From an uncultured delta proteobacterium (GTDB lineage: Bacteria; Desulfobacterota; Syntrophia; Syntrophales; UBA2185), in assembly GCA_963729715.1 (NCBI GenBank), contig CAVSPA010000005.1, positions 320,001 to 384,000 on the forward strand: a stretch of 64,000 nucleotides of DNA. Direction: 5' to 3'. A program made the position numbers and the translations under genes. Below, in pieces: positions 2 to 12,021 of this stretch (its first letter is position 1; each line of letters opens with the position of its first letter). The notes beneath the pieces were generated by a model. It was not told where the DNA came from and searched no databases. It saw only the letters and a list, made by a program, of their open reading frames with translations.

Positions 2-469
2 CGCCTTGGCCTCAGTAAGCATCCCCAGAGAGGCGCAGACCGTGAGGTCCGTTTCTCGGGAAATGGCAGTGGCGCTACGGCAGATGATGTCCAGTTCCTC
101 ATCTGTCGGCATATAGCCGCTTGTTACCATGGAATACCTTGTGGCCCCTCCCCTGTTTGATTCCATTGCGCTTTTCACAATCTCTTCTTCATCCAATAAA
201 GGATATGTCTTGATCTCAGTTCTGTGATGGGACGATTGGGCGCAGAAGGCGCAGTCCTCGGTACAAGAACCAGATTTGGCATTGATGATGGAGCACAGAA
301 TAGTTTCTTTTGCCTGTCGCATCTTCTTGATCTTGTGGGCGCAGAATAATAAGTCCATGGTATCCTTTTCTGGAAGACGGGCAAGTTCACATGCATCTTC
401 ATAGGAAAGAGCATCACCGCCAGCGTCAATAATCTTCTCAGTGAACTCGACGATTTTCTTATTGAACAT
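2..469 (-). CDS. bioB: Biotin synthase, 5' part (runs off the window edge)
   Basis: Manual translation from ATG at 469 (SD AGGAGA): MFNKKIVEF...CSIINAKSGSCTEDCAFCAQSSHH...GATRYSMVTSG...LTVCASLG. BioB radical SAM CxxxCxxC motif; not in the ORF track. Confidence 0.95.
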   Translation of the reverse strand, partial: MFNKKIVEFTEKIIDAGGDALSYEDACELARLPEKDTMDLLFCAHKIKKMRQAKETILCSIINAKSGSCTEDCAFCAQSSHHRTEIKTYPLLDEEEIVKSAMESNRGGATRYSMVTSGYMPTDEELDIICRSATAISRETDLTVCASLGMLTEAKA

Positions 470-625: not shown

Positions 626-1612
626 ATGTCTACTAGACAGCAATTACTCATCTATCTGAAAGAAGGCAAAGGAACCTGGGTCTCTGGCGAATTCCTCGCC
701 CATAAAATGGCGGTTTCCCGGTCGGCTGTATGGAAGCATATTGGCAGTCTAAAAAACGATGGCTACGTTATCGAATCGTCACGAAAGAAAGGATACCTCC
801 TCCGCCAGACATCCGATTTGCTTCTCGCTAATGAGATCCGGGAAGGGCTGAACACAAATGTCTTCGGCAAAGGAGAAATTATTTATTTCAGGGAAACAGA
901 CTCAACCAATGCAAGGGCTAAGTATCTGGCAGGCGATGGTACTCCTGAGGGAACGGTGATTGTCGCGGAAAAGCAAACAGAGGGAAGAGGGAGAAGGGGA
1001 AGAAGTTGGTTTTCACCTCCCGGTGAAGGAATCTACACATCTGTCATCCTGAGGCCGCCCATTCCTCCAAATGAAGCGCCTAAGCTGACTTTGCTCGCAT
1101 CGGTGGCGTTAGCTGAGGCGTTGCTTTCTCTTACATCACTAGAGGTCAGTATTAAATGGCCCAACGACATCCTGATCAGGGGCAGGAAGGTTGCGGGCAT
1201 ACTGACGGAGATCAGCACGGAAATGGACAGAATCGATTATGTGGTCATCGGTGTTGGTGTAAATGTGAATACGCCTAGCAAAGGCCTTCCCCCTGATATC
1301 GCACACACGGCCACATCGGTTTTTATGGAGACGGGCAAAGAGTTCCCCAGGATAGTTCTTCTCCGTGCTTTTCTGGAGTGGCTCGAAATATATTACGAAA
1401 CATTTAAGACCAAGGGCTTTGATCCCATATTGAATCGATGGAAGCACCTTGCTGACATCATCGGGCACCGGATCAGTGTTGACCTCATGGACAGTACACG
1501 CGTCGGAAAGGTCCTAGACGTAGACAAAGACGGTTTTCTCATTCTTCAGGATCGCAAGGGAACGATTGAGAGGATAATTTCCGGCGATGTAGCCCTGTTG
1601 AGCAAGGTGTAG
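626..1612 (+). CDS. birA: Bifunctional biotin--protein ligase / biotin repressor
   Basis: N-terminal HTH (VSGE..A..MAVSRSAVWKHI), GRGRRGRSW, KWPND, KVAGIL. Confidence 0.97.
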   Translation: MSTRQQLLIYLKEGKGTWVSGEFLAHKMAVSRSAVWKHIGSLKNDGYVIESSRKKGYLLRQTSDLLLANEIREGLNTNVFGKGEIIYFRETDSTNARAKYLAGDGTPEGTVIVAEKQTEGRGRRGRSWFSPPGEGIYTSVILRPPIPPNEAPKLTLLASVALAEALLSLTSLEVSIKWPNDILIRGRKVAGILTEISTEMDRIDYVVIGVGVNVNTPSKGLPPDIAHTATSVFMETGKEFPRIVLLRAFLEWLEIYYETFKTKGFDPILNRWKHLADIIGHRISVDLMDSTRVGKVLDVDKDGFLILQDRKGTIERIISGDVALLSKV

Positions 1613-1728
1613 AGCGCAGGACGTTCTAAAGGTTTGATGTGACTTCAAGACGAAATGTCATTTCGCCTGGAGAACTGTGAAACGAGTGGCGTGATGCGAC
1701 TGAGTTAAACTAGCGAGGCTTAGGTGTC

Positions 1729-3090
1729 ATGACTTACGAAGACAGTAAAGAATTGGAGATCGACGACAAGAAGTATGTTTGGCATCCCTTTACCCAGATG
1801 CGGGGTTATGAAAAGGAAACGCCACTCATCATTGAGGATGGCAACGGATGTCTCTTAAGAGATACGGCAGGCAATAGCTATATTGATGGTGTTTCTTCGC
1901 TCTGGACGAATGTTCATGGCCATAGGAAAAAGAGACTTGACGACGCATTGAAGAAGCAGCTTGGCAAGATTGCCCACTCAACCCTGTTGGGACTTTCCAA
2001 CATACCCGCAATCAGACTGGCAAAGAAATTAATTGCAATTGCCCCTGCGGGATTGACAAAAGTATTTTATTCCGACAATGGCTCCACGGCCAATGAAATA
2101 GCCCTTAAGATGGCCTTCCAGTACCATCAGCAATGCCCTTCGGGAAAGCGCAGCAAGAAGAAATTCATTCGCCTGTCCAATGCCTATCATGGGGACACCA
2201 TAGGCTCAGTGAGCGTGGGAGGGATTGATCTCTTCCATTCCATGTATAGGGACTTGCTTTTCCCGTCTTTCAAGGCGGAAGCGCCGTACTGCTACCGCTG
2301 CGCCTTGGGAAAGTCCCATCCCACTTGCGGGCTCGAATGTCTTACGCACGTGGAGGACATAATGAATGCTCATAACCATGAGATTGCCGCTCTCATGATA
2401 GAGCCCTTGGTCCAGGGAGCCGGTGGCATATTGGTGCAGCCACCGGGATACCTGAAAGGGGTAAGAGAGTTGTGCACCCGTTACAATATCTTTATGATCG
2501 CTGACGAAGTGGCGGTCGGCTTCGGCAAGACGGGAAAGATGTTTGCCTGTGAACATGAAGGCGTGACGCCGGACATCATGACCCTGGCAAAGGGAATAAC
2601 AGGAGGGTATCTCCCGCTTGCGGCAACCCTCGTGACGGAGGAAATCTATGAAGGATTCCTCGGGGAGTTCGAGGAGTTCAAGACATTCTTTCACGGACAC
2701 ACATTTACGGGAAACCCTCTGGCATGCGCAGTTGCAAGTGCCAGCCTTGAGGTCTTCGAAGAGGAGCGCACCCTTGACAAACTCCAGACAAAAATTGCGC
2801 ACCTCGCAAAGAGGCTAGAACCATTTGCTTCTCTCAGTCACGTCGGAGAGGTGCGCCAGTGCGGCATCATGGGAGGTATAGAACTTGTTTACAATCGGGA
2901 GACGAGGCAGCTTTTCCCTCCGGAGAAGAGAATCGGCCATAGGGTCATCATGGAGGCTAGAAAGAAGGGCGTGATTATCCGCCCTTTAGGGGACGTAATT
3001 GTCCTGATGCCGCCCTTGTCAATTTCTAAAAAGGAAATGGATCTGCTCTGTCAATCTGTATACGATGCGATTCGGATTGTGACAGAATAG
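1729..3090 (+). CDS. bioA: Adenosylmethionine--8-amino-7-oxononanoate aminotransferase
   Basis: WHPFTQM, DGVSSLWTNVHGH, YHGDT, DEVAVGFGKTG, AKGITGGYLP, HGHTFTGNP. Confidence 0.97.
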   Translation: MTYEDSKELEIDDKKYVWHPFTQMRGYEKETPLIIEDGNGCLLRDTAGNSYIDGVSSLWTNVHGHRKKRLDDALKKQLGKIAHSTLLGLSNIPAIRLAKKLIAIAPAGLTKVFYSDNGSTANEIALKMAFQYHQQCPSGKRSKKKFIRLSNAYHGDTIGSVSVGGIDLFHSMYRDLLFPSFKAEAPYCYRCALGKSHPTCGLECLTHVEDIMNAHNHEIAALMIEPLVQGAGGILVQPPGYLKGVRELCTRYNIFMIADEVAVGFGKTGKMFACEHEGVTPDIMTLAKGITGGYLPLAATLVTEEIYEGFLGEFEEFKTFFHGHTFTGNPLACAVASASLEVFEEERTLDKLQTKIAHLAKRLEPFASLSHVGEVRQCGIMGGIELVYNRETRQLFPPEKRIGHRVIMEARKKGVIIRPLGDVIVLMPPLSISKKEMDLLCQSVYDAIRIVTE

Positions 3091-3105
3091 ACGTGGGACC
3101 TCGAA

Positions 3106-3432
3106 ATGGCAGGTTATAAGAAAGCATCAGAGAGAAGCCCCGAGGATGGCTCCTGGGAGGGCGTCTTCTATTTTCATCCGGATGACGGCATCTACCAGGA
3201 TCATTTCCCCGGTTACCCGGTTGTCCCCGGGAGCTTGATAGTGTATGCATTTTTGGAAGCGGCCGCAGAAGCTTGCTTCTTACCGAATTATGTTACAATA
3301 GAAAACTTCAGGTTCAGAGAGTTTCTCTCACCTGGCCATCACGCATTTCGTATCGAACTGGAGGATGACCGGCTGATATGCCAGATTTATCGGGGAGAGA
3401 AGATACTCGTTACGGGAGTCTTAAAGAAATGA
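3106..3432 (+). CDS. FabA/FabZ-like hotdog dehydratase, His-bearing half
   Basis: DHFPGYPVVPG motif, FRFREFLSPG; inside the bio operon. Confidence 0.8.
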   Translation: MAGYKKASERSPEDGSWEGVFYFHPDDGIYQDHFPGYPVVPGSLIVYAFLEAAAEACFLPNYVTIENFRFREFLSPGHHAFRIELEDDRLICQIYRGEKILVTGVLKK

Positions 3433-4172
3433 GCCTCCATTTTTCGGGAAATCGCGCCCTTATTCTGGGAGGCACCTGCGAGCTTGCTCTGGCTTTGGCT
3501 CAATCCATGATAGAGTCTAAACTTTTTCCCATTCTTACTTACAGAGATGATAAGGGTCTAAATGCAATCGGAGAGTCTCTGAGGCCCTTTCATGGGAGAT
3601 ACGAGACTTGCTATCTGAATTTCGGTCATCATGATTTGCTGGAATCAGCCTTTGCCCAAATCGGTGATGATCTCAATTTCCTGGTAGATTTTGCCCAGGG
3701 AAATTATGAAAGCCTTATCGCTGCAGCAGACGAGGACAGCGTTAACAGTTATTTCACGGAGAATATCTCCTTTCGCGCTGAGATTCTGAAAAGGGCGGGA
3801 AGGGCGATGCTGAAGAGAAGAAAGGGGCGGCTCGTCTATATTTCTTCTGCAGCAGCGTTAAGACCCAATCCCGGCCAGGGATTTTATGCGGCGTCAAAGC
3901 TCGCTTCAGAGGCCCTCTATCGCAATATGGGACTGGAACTGGGGGAACGAGGTGTGACCACGGTGATCCTTCGTCCCGGTTATATTGATGCCGGGCGGGG
4001 CAGAATTTATCTGCAAAAGCAGGATCGAAAAATTCTTGAGATGACACCGATAAAGAGGACTATAACAGTCGAAGAAATTGCCGAGACGATTCTCTTCCTT
4101 CTTTCCGACAGCGCCGTCGGCATCAACGCAACAGCGATTTCCATGGACGGCGGTCTCACATCCGTAAAATAA
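3429..4172 (+). CDS. FabG-like SDR (3-oxoacyl-ACP reductase-like)
   Basis: ALILGGTCELA, YISS, YAASK, PGYID, SMDGG; ATG 3429 overlaps the upstream stop (ATGA). Confidence 0.88.
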   Translation: MSLHFSGNRALILGGTCELALALAQSMIESKLFPILTYRDDKGLNAIGESLRPFHGRYETCYLNFGHHDLLESAFAQIGDDLNFLVDFAQGNYESLIAAADEDSVNSYFTENISFRAEILKRAGRAMLKRRKGRLVYISSAAALRPNPGQGFYAASKLASEALYRNMGLELGERGVTTVILRPGYIDAGRGRIYLQKQDRKILEMTPIKRTITVEEIAETILFLLSDSAVGINATAISMDGGLTSVK

Positions 4173-4241
4173 AAAGCTGCTGAAGCTCTCCATCGGAAGG
4201 GAAGAGAGGGCTTGAGCGGCACATCTGAAAGTTGAGGACAC

Positions 4242-4613
4242 ATGGACATTTTTACTGAATTAAAAAAAATGCTGGAGGAACTGCTTGACATCGAAGACAG
4301 GGAAATTACGCCTGAGACTCTTCTCATCCAGGATTTGGGCGCTGAGTCCATTGACCTCCTGGAGCTCGCCGTAACTATAAACAGCCGGTTTAAAATCGCC
4401 GTGAAGGATGATGAGGTATTCCTGACACGATTCAGACTCTATTCTACGGAAGCGAAGCAACAGGGCAAGGACACCATCCATTATGTTGCCGGAAAATATC
4501 CTTTTCTCGGCGAAGACCGGATAGCGGAGATAATTGCGCATATTAAAGAAGGTCCTCAGTTGAAGATAAAGGACCTCATCAGTTACGTAGAATACCGGTC
4601 ACAGAGGGTTTAA
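4242..4613 (+). CDS. Acyl carrier protein, extended (123 aa)
   Basis: DLGAESIDLLEL phosphopantetheine Ser motif; C-terminal LKIKDLISYVE helix. Confidence 0.85.
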   Translation: MDIFTELKKMLEELLDIEDREITPETLLIQDLGAESIDLLELAVTINSRFKIAVKDDEVFLTRFRLYSTEAKQQGKDTIHYVAGKYPFLGEDRIAEIIAHIKEGPQLKIKDLISYVEYRSQRV

Positions 4614-4623
4614 CGCCTTGGAT

Positions 4624-5256
4624 ATGACGCCTCTCGATAAACTGATCAATCAGCGGAGAAGCATCAGGAAGTACAAACCCGAATGCCCGCCCGAAGAATG
4701 GTTAAAAAAGATGATCCTGGCGGCAATGAGGGCGCCTTCTCCTTCCAACAGCCAGCCCGTACGGTTCATCCGCATACTTTCGCCCGAGTTGAAGGATTGT
4801 CTCCTTCGGGCCATGCGCGCAGGTGAGGAGCGTTTGATGGATGCCGTTGGGAATTCGAGCAATCCAAAAAGATTGAGAAACTGGATCAACGCCTACCGAC
4901 GGTTCTCAGAGTTCATGTTCGATGCCCCGGTACTCTTTGCCGTCGGCACCACCATGACATTTCTCAATCTTGCAGTAAGGCTAGCCCGCGCAGGTGCGAT
5001 GGAACAGGGGCATAAGAGACACCGGGACATTGACATTGCCGTGGGTCTGGCTCTTCACGGATATCTGCTTAAGGGGGAGGAACTTGGCCTGGGTTCTTGT
5101 ATTCTCACAGCTCCCCTGCTCTTTATCCAGGAACCAGAGGGAATCCTCGGATTGAAGGGGATGGAGATCGAATGCTTTGTTACAACGGGGTATCCCGATG
5201 AAGAACCACTTTATATCAAGCGAAAAGATATCACCGAAATCTACAGGGAAGTATAA
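4624..5256 (+). CDS. Nitroreductase-family flavoprotein
   Basis: RRSIRKYK, RAPSPSNSQP, GLGSC, TGYPDE. Confidence 0.9.
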   Translation: MTPLDKLINQRRSIRKYKPECPPEEWLKKMILAAMRAPSPSNSQPVRFIRILSPELKDCLLRAMRAGEERLMDAVGNSSNPKRLRNWINAYRRFSEFMFDAPVLFAVGTTMTFLNLAVRLARAGAMEQGHKRHRDIDIAVGLALHGYLLKGEELGLGSCILTAPLLFIQEPEGILGLKGMEIECFVTTGYPDEEPLYIKRKDITEIYREV

Positions 5257-6471
5257 ATGACAAGAAGGGTCGTTATTACCTCAATGGGAATTCTCTCATC
5301 TCTCGGCTCTGACCGCGAAGAGATTATAAGGAGCTTCAGAGAGGGAAAAGTAAATTTCGAAAGACCCGCCTTTGACGACGAAGTCGTTACCTCCCCCGTC
5401 AGGGGCTTCAACGTGCGGGCATATACAGGCCCGTTTAAGGATGGCCGGTATCTAAACCGCTGCTCTCAGTTTGCTGTTGCCTCAGCCATCTCAGCGATAA
5501 AGAATTCGGGCTGCAAAAACGACTATCTGGAAGGAGCAGGACTCTTTGTCGGCGCCGGACCGAACCTCGATATCGGGGGCGAGTTCCCCGAGATCAGGAG
5601 AGGGGAAATTGACCGTGAGAACCTTCAGGCCTTATGGATCCTGAGATTTCTGCCCAACACCGCTGCATCTGTTATCGCAAAGCTTACAGGTGTCCACGGA
5701 GAGAACCTCACGGTATGTACTGCCTGTTCGGCTTCCCTACAGGCAATTGGAGAGGCGTTTCGAAAGATAAAGAACGGCTATCTCGATTGCGCCCTTGCCG
5801 GAGGCGGTGATTCCCGCCTGAGTCAGGGCGGAATACTGGCATACAAAAAGGCAAGCGCCCTCTATAAAGGTGACGGCGAACCTGATAAGGCAAGTAGGCC
5901 CTTCGATTGCAGCCGGAGCGGCTTTGTCCCCGGGGAAGGAGCGGCCTTTTTTCTTCTCGAGGAATTGGAAAAAGCGAAAGCGCGGGGGGCACAGATATAT
6001 GGCGAGATTTGTGGTTACGGAAGTTCCATGGACGCTGGCGGCATGATTGCCCCGGAAGGTACTGGAAAATGGGGAAGAATAGCCGTGCTTTCCGCTTTAC
6101 AGGAGGCGGAAACGTCTCCCTCTCAGATTGATGTGATTTCCACACACGGAACGGGAACCCTCCTCAATGATGAAGGAGAGGCCAACCTCATAGACGACAT
6201 CTACATGGGCTGCAGCCCCCGGGTAATGGCACTGAAATCCTGGATAGGACACACGGCTTCAGCCTGCGGAGCTATGGAGCTTGCTCTCTTACTAATCTGT
6301 CTCCAGGAGAATTATATCCCCGAGATCAGAAACCTGAGAGATCCCTGCTCAGAGAAAATCGATTTTGTTCGGAGCGGAGGAACTTTTACATTTGGTACGT
6401 GCGTCATTGAAAATTTCGGGTTTGGAGGACAGAATAGCGCTCTCATAGTGAAACGGCAGGAAGAGGTTTAA
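5257..6471 (+). CDS. Beta-ketoacyl-ACP synthase (FabF-like)
   Basis: TACSAS catalytic Cys, HGTGT, KSWIGH, NFGFGGQN. Confidence 0.93.
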   Translation: MTRRVVITSMGILSSLGSDREEIIRSFREGKVNFERPAFDDEVVTSPVRGFNVRAYTGPFKDGRYLNRCSQFAVASAISAIKNSGCKNDYLEGAGLFVGAGPNLDIGGEFPEIRRGEIDRENLQALWILRFLPNTAASVIAKLTGVHGENLTVCTACSASLQAIGEAFRKIKNGYLDCALAGGGDSRLSQGGILAYKKASALYKGDGEPDKASRPFDCSRSGFVPGEGAAFFLLEELEKAKARGAQIYGEICGYGSSMDAGGMIAPEGTGKWGRIAVLSALQEAETSPSQIDVISTHGTGTLLNDEGEANLIDDIYMGCSPRVMALKSWIGHTASACGAMELALLLICLQENYIPEIRNLRDPCSEKIDFVRSGGTFTFGTCVIENFGFGGQNSALIVKRQEEV

Positions 6472-6504
6472 GAATCGTGTACGTGCCATGGCAGGAAGTA
6501 TCGT

Positions 6505-6972
6505 ATGGAAGCGAATAGTATGGACACGAACATTGTCATCAACACAGGACTCACAGGCTTCATAATGCTCGACAGGATTCTGGAAGTGAATGCCGCCAGC
6601 ATCGTTGGTACGAGAACATTTACCGGCGCGCCGGCCGATTTGCCTCTGGAGTCCTTTGCCCAAATTGGCGCGTTCCATATCCGCTACATTACCGGGTTTT
6701 CCAGACATGTCTTTCTTATAAAAATCGTGAACTGCTCCATCCCTTTAAGGATGCCCTTGCAGGGGAAATACGTATTAACCGGGAACCTGCTCAGTCGGAC
6801 CGATTCATCCTTTCGCTCTTCTGTGAAGGCGGAAAGGGACAAAGAAACAGCTGCCGAGGCGGAGCTTCTGTTCACCGCAGTTGATTACGATCATAATTTT
6901 AAAAAGGGCATCTTGTGCGACCACTACATGAGGGTATTTTCATGTTTGCAGAGAGATACAGAAACCGTCTGA
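6505..6972 (+). CDS. FabZ-like hotdog protein, Glu-bearing half
   Basis: MLDRILEV and LESFAQ motifs resemble FabZ LVDRI / E-x-x-AQ; no HFP motif. Confidence 0.65.
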   Translation: MEANSMDTNIVINTGLTGFIMLDRILEVNAASIVGTRTFTGAPADLPLESFAQIGAFHIRYITGFSRHVFLIKIVNCSIPLRMPLQGKYVLTGNLLSRTDSSFRSSVKAERDKETAAEAELLFTAVDYDHNFKKGILCDHYMRVFSCLQRDTETV

Positions 6973-8087
6973 TGCTGCAGCAGCAGACGGGTCTATACCG
7001 CAAACCGCCGGAAGTGAAAGAAAGAGACGGGAAGTACCTCAACATAGAGGGAAGGAGGGTATTGAATTTCGCCTCCAATGACTACCTGGGCCTCGGCACT
7101 TCTGAGGAACTGCGACAACGGGCGGCGCGAAATTTCGGGAAGTATGGAACGTCATCTTCATCATCGCGCCTGGTGTCAGGAAACTATTCTACAATAATCA
7201 ATGCGGAAAAAGAATATGCATCATATTTCGGTTATGGCGATGCCATATTCTTCCCGAGCGGTTACCAGGCGAACTTGGGCATTCTTTCCACCCTTCTGGA
7301 ACGGGGGGACACCGTCATTTTTGACAAGCATATCCATGCAAGCTCCGTAAAGGGAATGATGATGAGCGGAGCGAACTTTCTCGGGTACAACCATAATTCC
7401 ATGCCCCACCTTGAGAAGAGACTGGAAATGTGCACGGGTGAGCAGGTTGCCGTCCTGACAGAGTCTCTCTTCAGTATGGATGGAGATCTTCTGGATGTAA
7501 CTGGTCTCAGCAAATTAAAGGAGCGTTGCCGCGTCCTGGCAATCGTAGACGAAGCCCACGCTTTCGGCGCCATAGGTTCCGGAGGGCGGGGCATCGCTGG
7601 TACTATTGCGGATATTGCTGTTGGAACCTTTGGAAAGGCTTTCGGCTTTTTTGGCGCCTTTGTCCTTCTTCCCGTGGGATTCAAGGAATACCTATTTAAC
7701 TTTTCCTCTCCTCTCATTTATACCACAACCCTTCCGGAAGCCCATGCCGCAACGGCAATAGACATTCTGGAAATTGTAGAGCGCAGTAATGACAGGCGGA
7801 AACGCCTGAGAGATACCAGTCAATTTCTGAAGAAACGCTTGCGTCTTGAGGGATTTCGGGTGACGGGTGATGCTCACATTCTGGCCTTGGAGATCGGCGA
7901 TGAGGCTAAGGCTATAAATATGGCCCGGAAGCTTCTCCAAAGGAATATATTTGTCCTCCCGGCCCGCTATCCCACAGTGCCTCTGCACCGCTCAATACTG
8001 AGAATAGGCGTCACGGCGCTTCACGAAGAAAAAGATATTATATCATTCATTGACCACGTAAAGGAAGCAAGTGAAGAGCTCGAATAA
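6942..8087 (+). CDS. bioF: 8-amino-7-oxononanoate synthase
   Basis: NFASNDYLGL, SRLVSG, SGYQAN, ESLFSMDGD, DEAHA, GTFGKAFG. Confidence 0.95.
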   Translation: MFAERYRNRLMLQQQTGLYRKPPEVKERDGKYLNIEGRRVLNFASNDYLGLGTSEELRQRAARNFGKYGTSSSSSRLVSGNYSTIINAEKEYASYFGYGDAIFFPSGYQANLGILSTLLERGDTVIFDKHIHASSVKGMMMSGANFLGYNHNSMPHLEKRLEMCTGEQVAVLTESLFSMDGDLLDVTGLSKLKERCRVLAIVDEAHAFGAIGSGGRGIAGTIADIAVGTFGKAFGFFGAFVLLPVGFKEYLFNFSSPLIYTTTLPEAHAATAIDILEIVERSNDRRKRLRDTSQFLKKRLRLEGFRVTGDAHILALEIGDEAKAINMARKLLQRNIFVLPARYPTVPLHRSILRIGVTALHEEKDIISFIDHVKEASEELE

Positions 8088-8778
8088 GAAAATTCAAAAT
8101 CTATTTGTTGTGGGAACGGATACAGGGGTAGGAAAAACAGTACTTGCCCTTCTCCTGATGCAATTCTTTTTTGCTAAGGGATATAGCCCTTTCTATCTCA
8201 AGCCCGTGCAGACAGGATGCACCGATGCAGACGATGCTGACAGTGATGCAAAATTCATTTACAGGCATGTCGAATCTTTGAATGGCAGACAGCCGACTGA
8301 ATCCGTGATCTACTGCTTCAAGAATCCGAAGGCACCTCTCTATGCCGCGAGCAATGAGGGAAAATTAATAGACCTATCAAAGATAAAGAGAGTCGTAGCT
8401 CAGAAGTCAGAGGCCCACTCCCCCGTAATACTCGAAGGTGCAGGGGGTGTGCTGGTCCCCGTAGCGGAGAAGAAGCTTATAGTTGACATTATCAGCTTAG
8501 TAGATGGAACTCCCGTCATAGCCGCAAGGGCGGGATTAGGGACAATTAACCACACCCTCCTTACGATTGAAGCCATAGAAAAAAGAGGGATTAAGCCTCT
8601 CGGAATTGTCTTTATTGATGCCGGCGAAAAGGAAACACCCGCTGAGATGATTAGGGAAAACATATCCGCTATCGAAGAAACTTCCGGCATAAAAGTGGCC
8701 GGGGTTATCGGCAGAATTCATGATTTTTCGCGGCCGCCGCATGATTGCTACAAACCTTTAGCAAAGATGTTTAGTTGA
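8071..8778 (+). CDS. bioD: Dethiobiotin synthetase
   Basis: GTDTGVGKT, KPVQTG, EGAGG, LGTINHTLLT. Confidence 0.96.
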   Translation: MKSSNKKIQNLFVVGTDTGVGKTVLALLLMQFFFAKGYSPFYLKPVQTGCTDADDADSDAKFIYRHVESLNGRQPTESVIYCFKNPKAPLYAASNEGKLIDLSKIKRVVAQKSEAHSPVILEGAGGVLVPVAEKKLIVDIISLVDGTPVIAARAGLGTINHTLLTIEAIEKRGIKPLGIVFIDAGEKETPAEMIRENISAIEETSGIKVAGVIGRIHDFSRPPHDCYKPLAKMFS

Positions 8779-9257: not shown

Positions 9258-11234
9258 ATGGGAGATACAGAAAAGCTTGAATTGAAGGAAGTTTATCCTG
9301 TTCCTGATTGGGCGCGCAAACAGGCGTACATTAAGAGCAGGGCCGAGTACGAGAAACTGTGGAAGCGTTCCGTGGAAGAACCTGACGCATTCTGGGCGGA
9401 GATCGCAACCGAGTATGTGGAGTGGTTCAAGAAATGGGACAAGGTAGAAGACTATAACTATGACGTTCAGAAGGGCCCAATTTACGTGAAGTACTTCGAG
9501 GGTGGTAAGCTCAATGTCTCATACAACTGTTTGGACAGGCAGCTTAAGACTCGGGGGAACAAGGTCGCCATCCAGTGGGAAGGCAACGAGCCCACTGAGG
9601 ACAAGTCTTACACCTACAAAGAGCTTTATACGGAAGTTTGCAAGTTTGCCAATGTCCTGAAGTCCCTGGGCATAAAGAAAGGTGACCGGGTATGCTTCTT
9701 TCTTCCCATGATCCCCGAGCTTGCCATCGGGATGCTGGCGTGTTCCAGGATTGGCGCTATCCACAATATAGTATTCGGCGGATTCAGCGCCGAGTCCTTA
9801 CGTGACAGGATTCAGGACAGTGAAGCCAAGATACTGGTGACCTGCGACGGGACCTTCCGTGGTGCAAAGGCAGTTCCCCAAAAGAGTGGTGCGGACGAGG
9901 CATTGAAGACCTGTCCTTCCGTCGAGAAGTCTATCGTTGTTAAGAGGGTGGGCGACAAGATCGCGTGTGAAATGAAGGCAGGCAGGGATCTCTGGTGGCA
10001 CGAATCGATGGCAAAGGCAAGCGATAAGTGCGAACCGGAGTGGATGGATGCTGAAGATCCTCTTTTCATCCTGTACACCTCGGGTTCCACTGGAAAGCCA
10101 AAAGGCGTCATGCACACAACGGGCGGGTATTTGGTGTATGTGGCCTATACACACAAGATGATTTTCGACTACCACGAGAATGACATCTTCTGGTGCACAG
10201 CCGACATCGGCTGGGTAACAGGGCACAGTTACATTGTGTACGGTCCTCTTTGCAACGGCGCTACGACGGTGATGTTTGAGGGTGTACCCAATTACCCAGA
10301 TGTGAGCCGTTTCTGGAAGGTCTGTGAAAAGTATAAAGTGACGATTTTTTACACTGCCCCTACGGCCATCCGCGCTATTGCGAAGGAGGGAACGGATTGG
10401 GTAAAGAAGGCTAACATATCATCTCTGCGGCTCTTAGGTACGGTAGGCGAGCCGATTAACCCCGAGGCGTGGCACTGGTATCATCACAATATCGGGCGTG
10501 ACGAGCTTCCTATTGTTGATACATGGTGGCAGACCGAGACCGGGGGCATTCTCATCACGCCTCTACCCGGCGCTATTGATCTCAAGCCCGGCAAGGCCAC
10601 GGTCCCCTTTATGGGAGTAGATCCAGCCATTATTGATGAAAGCGGTGCGGAGATAAAGACAACGGTTGCGAGCGGGCCCCTCTGCATAAAGAAGCCCTGG
10701 CCGGGGATCATGAGAAGGGTATACGGGGATCCCATGAGGTTCCAGGAGACCTACTTCATACAGCGCCCCGGATTCTATTACACTGGTGATGGAGCCACAA
10801 GGGACGAAGACGGCTATTATCAGCTTATGGGCCGGATCGATGACGTTATCAATGTCTCCGGGCACAGATTGGGAACGGCAGAAATTGAAAGCGCCCTCGT
10901 TGCTCATGAGAAGGTGGCAGAGGCCGCTGTTGTGGGCTATCCCCATGACATTAAGGGTCAATCCATTTACGCATATGTGACTCTCAAAACGGGCGTAAAG
11001 AAATCTGATGACTTGAGAAAAGAACTCGTAGCACACGTCAGGAAGCTCATTGGGCCAACCGCTACACCCGAAAAAATCCAGTGGGCCGATGGTCTGCCGA
11101 AGACCAGAAGTGGCAAGATCATGAGGAGGATATTGAGGAAGGTCGCTGCGAATGAGATCAGTGATCTGGGAGATACAACTACCCTGGCAGATCCTTCTGT
11201 CGTCGACGATATCGTGAAAAACAGGGTACTCTAA
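9258..11234 (+). CDS. acs: Acetyl-CoA synthetase (AMP-forming)
   Basis: [42 protein letters not shown]. Confidence 0.97.
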
Positions 11235-11250
11235 GAGAAAGGAGGCAAAT

Positions 11251-12021
11251 GTGAATATCGTAGCATGTGTAAAGCAGGTTCCGGACACAGAAACCCTTAT
11301 CAAGGTGAAGCCTGATGGAACAGGGATTGACGAAGCTGGCATTAAATGGGTCATGAATCCCTATGACGAGTTTGGTGTTGAAGAAGCCCTGAAACTGAAG
11401 GAAAAGTTCGGCGGAGATGTTACCATCGTTTCCGTTGGTCCAGCGAGGGCACTGGAGACCATCAGAACAGCCCTTGCCATGGGAGCTGATAAGGGAATAC
11501 ATATAAACGATGCGGCTCTTGAAGGTGCTGATGCCTATAACATAGCCGCTGCTCTGGCTGCGGCAATCAAAGGCATTCCACACGACATTATCTTTTGCGG
11601 ACAGCGCGCCATTGATGATGACGCCGGCCAGGTAGGTTCCGTCCTTGCAGAATTCCTGGGTATCCCTCAAGTAACCTTTGTTACAAAGCTCGACGTCGAA
11701 GGTGCGTCAATAAAGGTCATAAGGCCGATTGAAGGGGCTCAACTTCTGATCGAAAGTTCACTGCCATGTGTCGTTACCGCGCAGAAAGGGCTGAACGAGC
11801 CGCGCTATGCATCACTTCCGGGAATAATGAAGGCAAAGAAAAAACCTGTCGATGTTAAGGATGCTGCAGGTCTGGGAGTAACTGTTGCCCCCAAAGCAAA
11901 GATCGCCAAGACCTTGCCGCCTCCTGCCAGACCTCCCGGAAAGATTATCTGCGGTGAAGAGCCGGCGGAAAAGGCCAGAGAACTGGCGAAACTGCTCAGG
12001 GAAGAGGCGAAGGTTATTTAA
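11251..12021 (+). CDS. etfB: Electron transfer flavoprotein beta subunit
   Basis: CVKQVPDT, MNPYDE, AMGAD, NEPRYASL. Confidence 0.96.
   Translation: MNIVACVKQVPDTETLIKVKPDGTGIDEAGIKWVMNPYDEFGVEEALKLKEKFGGDVTIVSVGPARALETIRTALAMGADKGIHINDAALEGADAYNIAAALAAAIKGIPHDIIFCGQRAIDDDAGQVGSVLAEFLGIPQVTFVTKLDVEGASIKVIRPIEGAQLLIESSLPCVVTAQKGLNEPRYASLPGIMKAKKKPVDVKDAAGLGVTVAPKAKIAKTLPPPARPPGKIICGEEPAEKARELAKLLREEAKVI

Follow-up and report, generated by a model that had tools for sequence, protein, structure and literature searches.

The biotin operon and its inner cassette

The window analysed here, the whole stretch of 64,000 nucleotides (G000:C5:320001-384000), comes from the genome of an uncultured Syntrophales bacterium (G000; 3.76 Mb in 19 contigs, 100% complete, 6.48% contamination) and carries a biotin (bio) operon in which six genes resembling those of fatty acid synthesis (FAS) stand between bioA and bioF. 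The plus strand from 626 to 8778 holds ten genes (birA, bioA, the six inner genes, bioF and bioD), with bioB divergent from birA. From the comparison of sequences it is proposed here that the six inner genes, referred to as the cassette, probably replace BioC and BioH and make pimeloyl-ACP, on an acyl carrier protein (ACP) of their own, for BioF. The features of the locus are as follows.

2-469, minus strand: bioB, 5' part, continuing beyond the window start (TIGR00433, 395 bits, cut-off 225)
566-597, no strand: candidate BirA-type operator, AAGTCAACC-N14-GGTTGACAA, with an exact palindrome core at 568-595; binding predicted from sequence
626-1612, plus strand: birA, biotin ligase with an N-terminal helix-turn-helix (HTH) repressor domain (TIGR00121, 230 bits, cut-off 83.1; PF08279, HTH_11, E 6.8e-16)
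1729-3090, plus strand: bioA (TIGR00508, 555.5 bits, cut-off 405)
3106-3432, plus strand: hd1, short FabZ/ApeI-like hotdog protein, 108 amino acids (PF07977, FabA-like, E 4.9e-7)
3429-4172, plus strand: FabG-like ketoreductase of the short-chain dehydrogenase/reductase (SDR) type, 247 amino acids (PF13561, E 8.2e-26)
4242-4613, plus strand: dedicated ACP, 123 amino acids (PF00550, E 2.2e-8)
4624-5256, plus strand: nitroreductase-fold flavoprotein, 210 amino acids (PF00881, E 7.9e-24; 85.1 bits, gathering score 23.5)
5257-6471, plus strand: FabF-like 3-ketoacyl-ACP synthase (KAS), 404 amino acids (PF00109 and PF02801)
6520-6972, plus strand: hd2, hotdog protein, 150 amino acids, alternative start at 6505 (from fold search only; no Pfam model)
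6942-8087, plus strand: bioF, alternative GTG start at 6915 (TIGR00858, 331.8 bits, under the cut-off of 426.45 yet the best family; position conserved)
8071-8778, plus strand: bioD (TIGR00347, 138.8 bits, cut-off 83.3)

An earlier model-made reading of the same DNA, here called the first-pass annotation, had described six tightly packed FAS-like genes between bioA and bioF, and all six are indeed found on the plus strand at the positions given there. The gene hd1 begins 15 nt after bioA, and the ATG of the SDR gene overlaps the hd1 stop codon by 4 nt, as ATGA, the start listed for this open reading frame at 3378 being probably too early. The SDR and ACP genes are separated by 69 nt, and the ACP and nitroreductase genes by 10 nt, while the KAS gene begins on the base after the nitroreductase stop codon (0 nt) and is followed after 48 nt by hd2. 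At the end of the cassette, the bioF start overlaps the hd2 end by 31 nt, and bioD in turn overlaps bioF.

The synteny survey recommended along with the first-pass annotation was made by scanning one genome per species with peptide patterns of hd2 and finding the neighbouring genes by tblastn with the window proteins. It gave 57 loci in other species, in metagenome-assembled genomes (MAGs) of Syntrophales, Syntrophobacterales, Desulfobacterales and Desulfarculales, a set biased to relatives having two exact peptide patterns and in which Desulfovibrio-type copies are under-sampled. In all 51 informative loci hd2 has bioF directly after it, and in 49 of the 51 it has the KAS gene directly before it (the exceptions being L045 and L046). 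The full order bioA-hd1-sdr-acp-ntr-kas-hd2-bioF is kept in 34 of the 38 loci informative for it, with L046, L062, L064 and L065 as exceptions.

Across a phylum sample of 301 genomes, strong matches to the hd2 profile are present in three, namely the genome of the window, G231 and G177; ten more, with E values of 1e-8 to 1e-5, resemble ordinary FabZ proteins and were left out of this count. Nine genomes of the same order are included in the sample, and neither hd2 nor BioC was found in any of them. The G177 locus (L095, G177:C22, 8453-12992) is a distant cassette of high guanine-cytosine content with the order hd1-sdr-acp-kas-hd2-bioF, having no nitroreductase gene. Its genus (g74) is represented in the sample by three more genomes; these carry BioC without hd2, and G177 has the cassette and no BioC match, a pattern suggestive of an exchange of the pimelate route within the genus.

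The genes of the known pimelate routes bioC, bioH, bioW and bioI had been reported as lacking in the window, and profile searches extend this absence to the whole genome. The best BioC match has 70 bits (cut-off 185) and the best BioH match 62 bits (cut-off 207), and there are no matches for BioW, BioG or cytochrome P450 (BioI). Also, no bioZ-type KAS III gene linked to bio genes was found in this genome, its only KAS III-like gene (140 bits, FabH cut-off 292; C5:713598-714590) lying about 390 kb from the bio operon. Of these searches, which the first-pass annotation had called for, those for BioC and BioW were repeated in 40 of the 57 other cassette-bearing genomes, with BioC over its cut-off in 0 of 40 and BioW found in 0 of 40. 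For comparison, full-length BioC-like matches at E<=1e-45 are present in 65 genomes of the phylum sample, 20 of them over the cut-off. These counts fit a cassette standing in for BioC, within the limits of a pattern-biased set of loci whose members, being kin, are not independent, and of a phylum sample too small for co-occurrence statistics.

The KAS III-like gene is part of a second FAS-like cluster, outside the window on the minus strand (L018, G000:C5:708840-715831), with genes for an acyl-CoA dehydrogenase, the KAS III-like protein, a FabA-like protein (198 amino acids), an SDR, a FabZ-like protein (159 amino acids), a KAS (430 amino acids), an acyltransferase and a phosphopantetheinyl transferase. 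Neither FabZ nor FabH reaches its curated cut-off in this genome, and the best matches (71 and 140 bits, respectively) both belong to this cluster; because of this, the cluster may be part of housekeeping lipid synthesis, or else of an aryl-polyene-like pathway. It was considered as a BioZ-like source of pimelate and rejected, as it contains no bio genes.

Catalytic residues of the cassette proteins

The cassette ACP is matched by ACP models only in its first half (residues 2-60 altogether, and residues 6-60 by PF00550), with the family models ending at about position 59-62 of their 77-80. Its TIGR00517 score of 35.8 bits, over model positions 3-59 only, is well under the cut-off of 70.45 for the acpP type. 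The serine of the DSL-like motif is Ser36, within LGAESIDLLEL. About 60 extra residues follow at the C-terminus, whose length and motifs (GP.L...D...Y) are kept in 44 orthologs, and the long form is present also in the distant G177 variant; the conserved extension therefore sets the cassette ACP apart from acpP.

The SDR has the tetrad N112, S140, Y153 and K157, each conserved in at least 90% of 41 orthologs, together with an atypical glycine-rich motif (GGTCELA) and a TIGR01830 score of 97.2 bits, under the cut-off of 297.75. Similarly, the KAS, which aligns to the FabF structure 5sxo, has the Cys-His-His triad and active-site lysine of its class (C157, H297, H332 and K327), conserved at 90% or above in 51 orthologs, and scores 273.8 bits against TIGR03150 (FabF), under the equivalog cut-off of 493.75. 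By its score the cassette KAS is a distinct KAS subfamily and not the housekeeping FabF; the genome has its own acpP-fabF pair on contig C7. Three residues that differ from that FabF, R187, Y196 and K198, are shared by 47-49 of the 49 cassette KAS sequences and, from FabF structures, are presumably in the acyl pocket.

Two hotdog proteins had been named in the cassette, and this description holds. For hd1 it follows from PF07977 and from a family profile whose alignment with FabZ structures (3d6x, E 2.7e-7) matches the HFPG-P-PG motif, and for hd2 from the predicted structure, as no Pfam or NCBIfam model matches it even at E 10. The AlphaFold model of hd2, from 28 homologues, has hotdog topology at a predicted local distance difference test (pLDDT) score of 72.9, and the top Foldseek matches of this model are FabZ structures (4h4g, E 7.9e-7, template modelling score 0.61-0.67). 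Among the sequences of solved structures, the best match to the hd2 profile was a ribosomal protein at E 0.18, not a meaningful one, and hd1 and hd2 did not match each other significantly in a profile-profile comparison (probability 1%). At E<=0.001, 214 of 1.84 billion cluster representatives belong to the hd2 family, whose named members are all annotated as hypothetical proteins. Against TIGR01750 (fabZ), hd1 has 25.8 bits with a cut-off of 155, and hd2 has no match.

In FabZ dimers, each active site consists of the His of one chain and the Glu of the other, so that a homodimer with both residues in one chain has two sites. The two cassette proteins divide these residues between them. His33 of hd1 is invariant (30 sequences), and the position of the catalytic Glu of FabZ, 14 residues past the His, is Tyr47 in the window protein; Glu stands there in 0 of 119 motif-bearing homologues and in one of 41 syntenic orthologs, and His in 103 of the 119. 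Conversely, in hd2 the Glu (E44; E49 when counted from the start at 6505) is invariant in 48 diverse members, within an LE(S/A)xAQ motif on the central helix, and the H[FY]P motif is absent in 200 of 200 family members. Taking these complementary losses together with the cross-chain sites of FabZ, an hd1:hd2 pair would have exactly one complete site. The conserved His of the hd1 family would stand at the other site, expected to be dead, where the window protein has the Tyr.

A model of the hd1:hd2 complex scored an ipSAE of 0.88 (0.87-0.88 among runs), with 0.00 for the best control; this mark is reached by 116 of 157 solved complexes and by 2 of 215 mismatched pairs. The runs share at least 94% of contacts, with a pLDDT of 87 or more for the partners, and in the model S43 of hd1 contacts E44 of hd2, the interface including residues 26-37 of hd1 and with them His33. 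It is reasonably likely, judging from this model, that hd1 and hd2 form a heterodimer with a single active site, in the manner of ApeI/ApeP. The ApeI/ApeP pair of aryl-polyene clusters is described as a heterodimeric dehydratase with one active site (PMC8041823), and here as there two small hotdog proteins belong to one type-II FAS-like cluster. As differences, hd2 is in no Pfam family, and the pathway, the product and the His/Glu split between the chains are, for the cassette, predictions from sequence. The hd1 homologues listed carry a precomputed ApeI-like label (PF22818), and a direct PF22818 scan of the window's own genome gave no match at E<=0.001.

The nitroreductase-fold protein passes the PF00881 gathering score and no NCBIfam subfamily cut-off, with the C-domain of FbiB, a dehydro-F420-0 reductase, as its best match there. 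Its RRSIR and APSP.N.QP motifs, of the flavin mononucleotide (FMN) site, are invariant among orthologs. In a profile search, the solved sequences nearest to it are 3eo8 and 3gfa (uncharacterised, clostridial), iodotyrosine deiodinase and the FbiB C-domain, and a search of a protein atlas returned generic nitroreductase clusters only. The enone reductase CLA-ER (4qlx, E 6e-6) is among its solved relatives, and thus C=C reduction has a precedent in the nitroreductase fold. It is the only candidate within the cluster, as far as sequence families tell, for an enoyl reduction step.

A candidate route to pimeloyl-ACP

Extended bio operons of this kind were described in Desulfovibrio by Rodionov and colleagues in 2004 and proposed to encode a new pathway to pimeloyl-CoA (PMC545781). 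In 2023, Trotter and colleagues used randomly barcoded transposon sequencing (RB-TnSeq) in Desulfovibrio vulgaris Hildenborough and reported that DVU2558-DVU2565 and an unlinked nitroreductase, DVU1220, are specifically needed when biotin is lacking; according to that paper, similar clusters are present also in a Chrysiogenetes species and in two further orders of Desulfobacterota, those of Syntrophobacter fumaroxidans and Desulfobacter vibrioformis include a nitroreductase-like gene, and enoyl reductase is named as the missing activity, to be supplied by the nitroreductase or by a housekeeping enzyme (PMC10102598). The first-pass annotation knew of no biochemical characterisation of such operons. 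None was found in the literature searched, as it had said, but genetic evidence does exist, in the same report (PMC10102598), so that in the literature found this kind of pathway is known genetically. The earlier interpretation of the window was essentially the published hypothesis, and the idea is not new; what is added here is modest, namely the His/Glu pair split between two chains, the extension of the ACP and the counts of linkage.

The locus is best described as a Syntrophales copy of the Desulfovibrio-type operon, a compact and further member in another order. As in Desulfovibrio, two FabZ-like proteins, a 3-oxoacyl-ACP reductase, an ACP and a KAS are encoded between bio genes accompanied by a candidate BirA site, in a genome without bioC, bioH/bioG or bioW. 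The differences are the Syntrophales host, birA at the head of the operon and the divergent bioB. With the Syntrophobacter and Desulfobacter versions the window shares the nitroreductase-like gene inside the cluster, and the Syntrophobacter and Desulfobacteraceae loci are syntenic with it, their nitroreductases being 47-52% identical to that of the window. The link to D. vulgaris is made through architecture, through a Desulfovibrionales MAG member of the hd2 family and through the nitroreductase-free G177 cassette.

Gene content, catalytic residues, linkage and the absence of the known routes are observed, and on these a series of steps can be proposed. Each chemical step in it is conjectural, as are the choice of starter, the heterodimer and the part given to the flavoprotein. 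The dedicated ACP would be malonylated by a housekeeping transacylase, and the Cys-His-His KAS would extend a carboxyl-bearing primer with malonyl-ACP. The primer is most likely malonyl, which would give C3, C5 and then C7 in two rounds with the free omega-carboxylate kept. In each round the SDR would reduce the 3-oxo group, and the hd1:hd2 heterodimer would dehydrate the product at one composite site made of His33 of hd1 and Glu44 of hd2. Reduction of the enoyl thioester would follow, with either the nitroreductase-fold flavoprotein or a FabK-like enzyme of the housekeeping set as catalyst, and pimeloyl-ACP would be passed to BioF. The conserved linkage, the lack of matches to the known routes and the published Desulfovibrio genetics (PMC10102598) all support this reading.

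The Escherichia coli route relies on a methyl-ester disguise, through BioC and BioH, and on the housekeeping FAS. Like it, the route proposed here would start with a malonyl thioester and arrive, after two FAS-type rounds, at a pimeloyl thioester for BioF. It would differ in that no such methyltransferase or esterase was found in the BioC, BioH and BioG searches, and in that the cassette has its own ACP, KAS, reductase and dehydratase and presumably keeps the omega-carboxylate free. A self-contained mini-FAS for C7 pimeloyl had been put forward for the window; a dedicated FAS-like set remains the best-supported reading, but the set is not self-contained, because the cassette includes no malonyl transferase and no phosphopantetheinyl transferase, and for enoyl reductase only a candidate.

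Several points weigh against this proposal. None of the five recognisable cassette proteins (0 of 5) scores over a curated housekeeping-family cut-off, and their activities are extrapolated. A 3-oxoglutaryl thioester with a free carboxylate would be chemically labile, and the use of malonyl, not decarboxylated, as the primer of a FabF-type KAS would need an explanation. Regarding the dehydratase, the His found in 103 of 119 hd1 homologues may point to another catalytic arrangement or to an hd1 homodimer, and the score of the modelled complex may reflect a mere likeness to FabZ dimers, since these are among the solved structures. Also, hd1 of the distant G177 variant retains the FabZ Glu, which speaks against a split pair, although the single-site logic is valid there too, because G177 hd2 still has no His. 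The nitroreductase gene is missing from three of 44 cassettes (L048, L062 and L063), with no ortholog at E<=1e-10 in two of these three genomes, and from the G177 cassette as well, and FabK-like genes of the window's own genome (268.6 bits, cut-off 453) could supply enoyl reduction. Among the genomes searched, G324 (that of L059) has a full-length BioC-like near miss of 178.8 bits, with a cut-off of 184.95. Finally, the literature searches found no biochemistry for any such cluster, giving nothing later than the 2023 study and its preprint.

G324 is the sole searched cassette-bearing genome with a near-cut-off BioC. Its cassette contig is short (4.2 kb) and has a stated coverage of 0.71, for which reasons a mixed bin is possible.

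The nitroreductase may be the enoyl reductase of the pathway, at slightly under even chances when sequence is the guide. Alternatively, the pathway may run as proposed with a FabK-like housekeeping enzyme reducing the enoyl-ACP, the flavoprotein serving in electron supply, in the removal of side products or in some other redox function. No member of the nitroreductase fold is known to act as an enoyl-ACP reductase, and this agrees with the alternative, as do the cassettes lacking the gene and the FabK-like genes noted above. On the other hand, 41 of 44 cassettes have the gene in the same slot, after acp and before kas, enoyl reduction alone among the elongation activities would otherwise have no candidate in the cassette, and the superfamily offers the precedents for C=C reduction already mentioned, CLA-ER and the FbiB C-domain. 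Both options are left open by Trotter et al., in whose data D. vulgaris needs its distant nitroreductase when grown without biotin (PMC10102598), a point in favour of a direct part in the pathway. Overall, the alternative use of the flavoprotein is possible and rather unlikely.

A different starter can also be considered for the pimeloyl route. This would be glutaryl-CoA or glutaryl-ACP, abundant as an intermediate where anaerobes degrade benzoate or lysine; it would be elongated once to 3-oxopimeloyl-ACP in a BioZ-like manner and pass through a single reduction cycle. A C5 starter would avoid the labile 3-oxoglutaryl intermediate, and glutaryl-CoA was among the substrates suggested with the first-pass annotation. 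Against it, FabF-type KAS enzymes use acyl-ACP rather than acyl-CoA primers, the KAS of the window is of this Cys-His-His type and not a KAS III, and no acyl-CoA:ACP transferase or ligase is among the cassette genes. BioZ is a precedent, being described as a KAS III-type enzyme that joins glutaryl-CoA and malonyl-ACP, with reduction by the housekeeping FAS (PMC12704756), but the same kind of cluster is present in Desulfovibrio (PMC10102598), which also counts against a glutaryl start. The cassette would be like alpha-proteobacterial BioZ in placing a dedicated condensing enzyme in the bio operon on the way to a 3-oxopimeloyl thioester, and unlike it in having a FabF-type KAS with its own reductase, dehydratase and ACP. 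Of the two starters malonyl is favoured, and a glutaryl start seems improbable.

A last reading, in which the acyl product is a different one (a lipid, for example, or an acid of polyketide type) and has no part in biotin synthesis, is very hard to sustain: the scores under all housekeeping cut-offs and the ApeI-like label of hd1 homologues, absent from the direct scan, would allow it, but from order to order the cassette keeps its position between bioA and bioF, bioF overlaps the hd2 end, BioC over its cut-off and BioW are both lacking in the 40 searched genomes, and the D. vulgaris genetics agree with a role in biotin synthesis (PMC10102598).

Returning to the malonyl-primed synthesis of pimeloyl-ACP, its parts can be joined in a wider and doubtful reading, according to which the cassette would encode a type-II synthase, complete and orthogonal, that makes dicarboxylic acyl chains whose omega-carboxylate stays free. 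It would combine an FMN-dependent enoyl-ACP reductase of nitroreductase fold, a split-dyad hotdog dehydratase and an insulating ACP, the first two of these being new as enzymes. In it, the conserved His53, Arg55 and His63 of hd2 would read the distal carboxylate, the insert-bearing ACP would insulate the pathway from the housekeeping FAS, and the nitroreductase fold would be a further class of enoyl-ACP reductase beside FabI/L/V and FabK.

The question behind the proposal is how anaerobes without BioC, BioW, BioI, BioZ and the oxygen-dependent BioE make pimeloyl. If the proposal is true, the cassette would be an oxygen-independent and methyl-ester-free route to pimeloyl-ACP, with a possible use in biotin production, and might add a new class of enoyl-ACP reductase. 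The locus is a convenient template for reconstitution, because all candidate parts, including the reductase candidate, are in one operon. A December 2025 paper on BioE, which needs oxygen, gives BioC-BioH, BioI-BioW and BioZ as the only prior routes, and in the available part of its text the word Desulfovibrio is absent (PMC12704756).

Operator and neighbouring genes

The first-pass annotation had placed the cassette behind a BirA operator. An operator-type palindrome is present, but it lies upstream of birA, about 2.5 kb before the cassette, in the 156-bp spacer between the divergent bioB and birA. Even with two mismatches allowed, nothing else in the window matches the core, GTCAACC-N14-GGTTGAC at 568-595, 0.13 matches being expected by chance. 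The core has the same form as the delta-proteobacterial BirA sites listed in Table 1 of Rodionov and colleagues (PMC545781). Scans for promoters and terminators gave matches no more numerous than in shuffled sequences. The TIGR00433 match of bioB, on the minus strand at G000:C5:319504-320409, comprises positions 1-409 of the window and the sequence upstream of it.

After bioD there is a gap of 480 bp, followed at 9258-12021 by genes for an acetate-CoA ligase (NF001208, 1035 bits) and an electron-transfer flavoprotein beta subunit, for which no link to the bio operon was seen. In addition to the birA of the window, a second biotin-ligase homologue is encoded at G000:C6:430839-431570, with 39% identity to the catalytic part of the window protein (residues 85-327); a second biotin ligase is also present in D. 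vulgaris.

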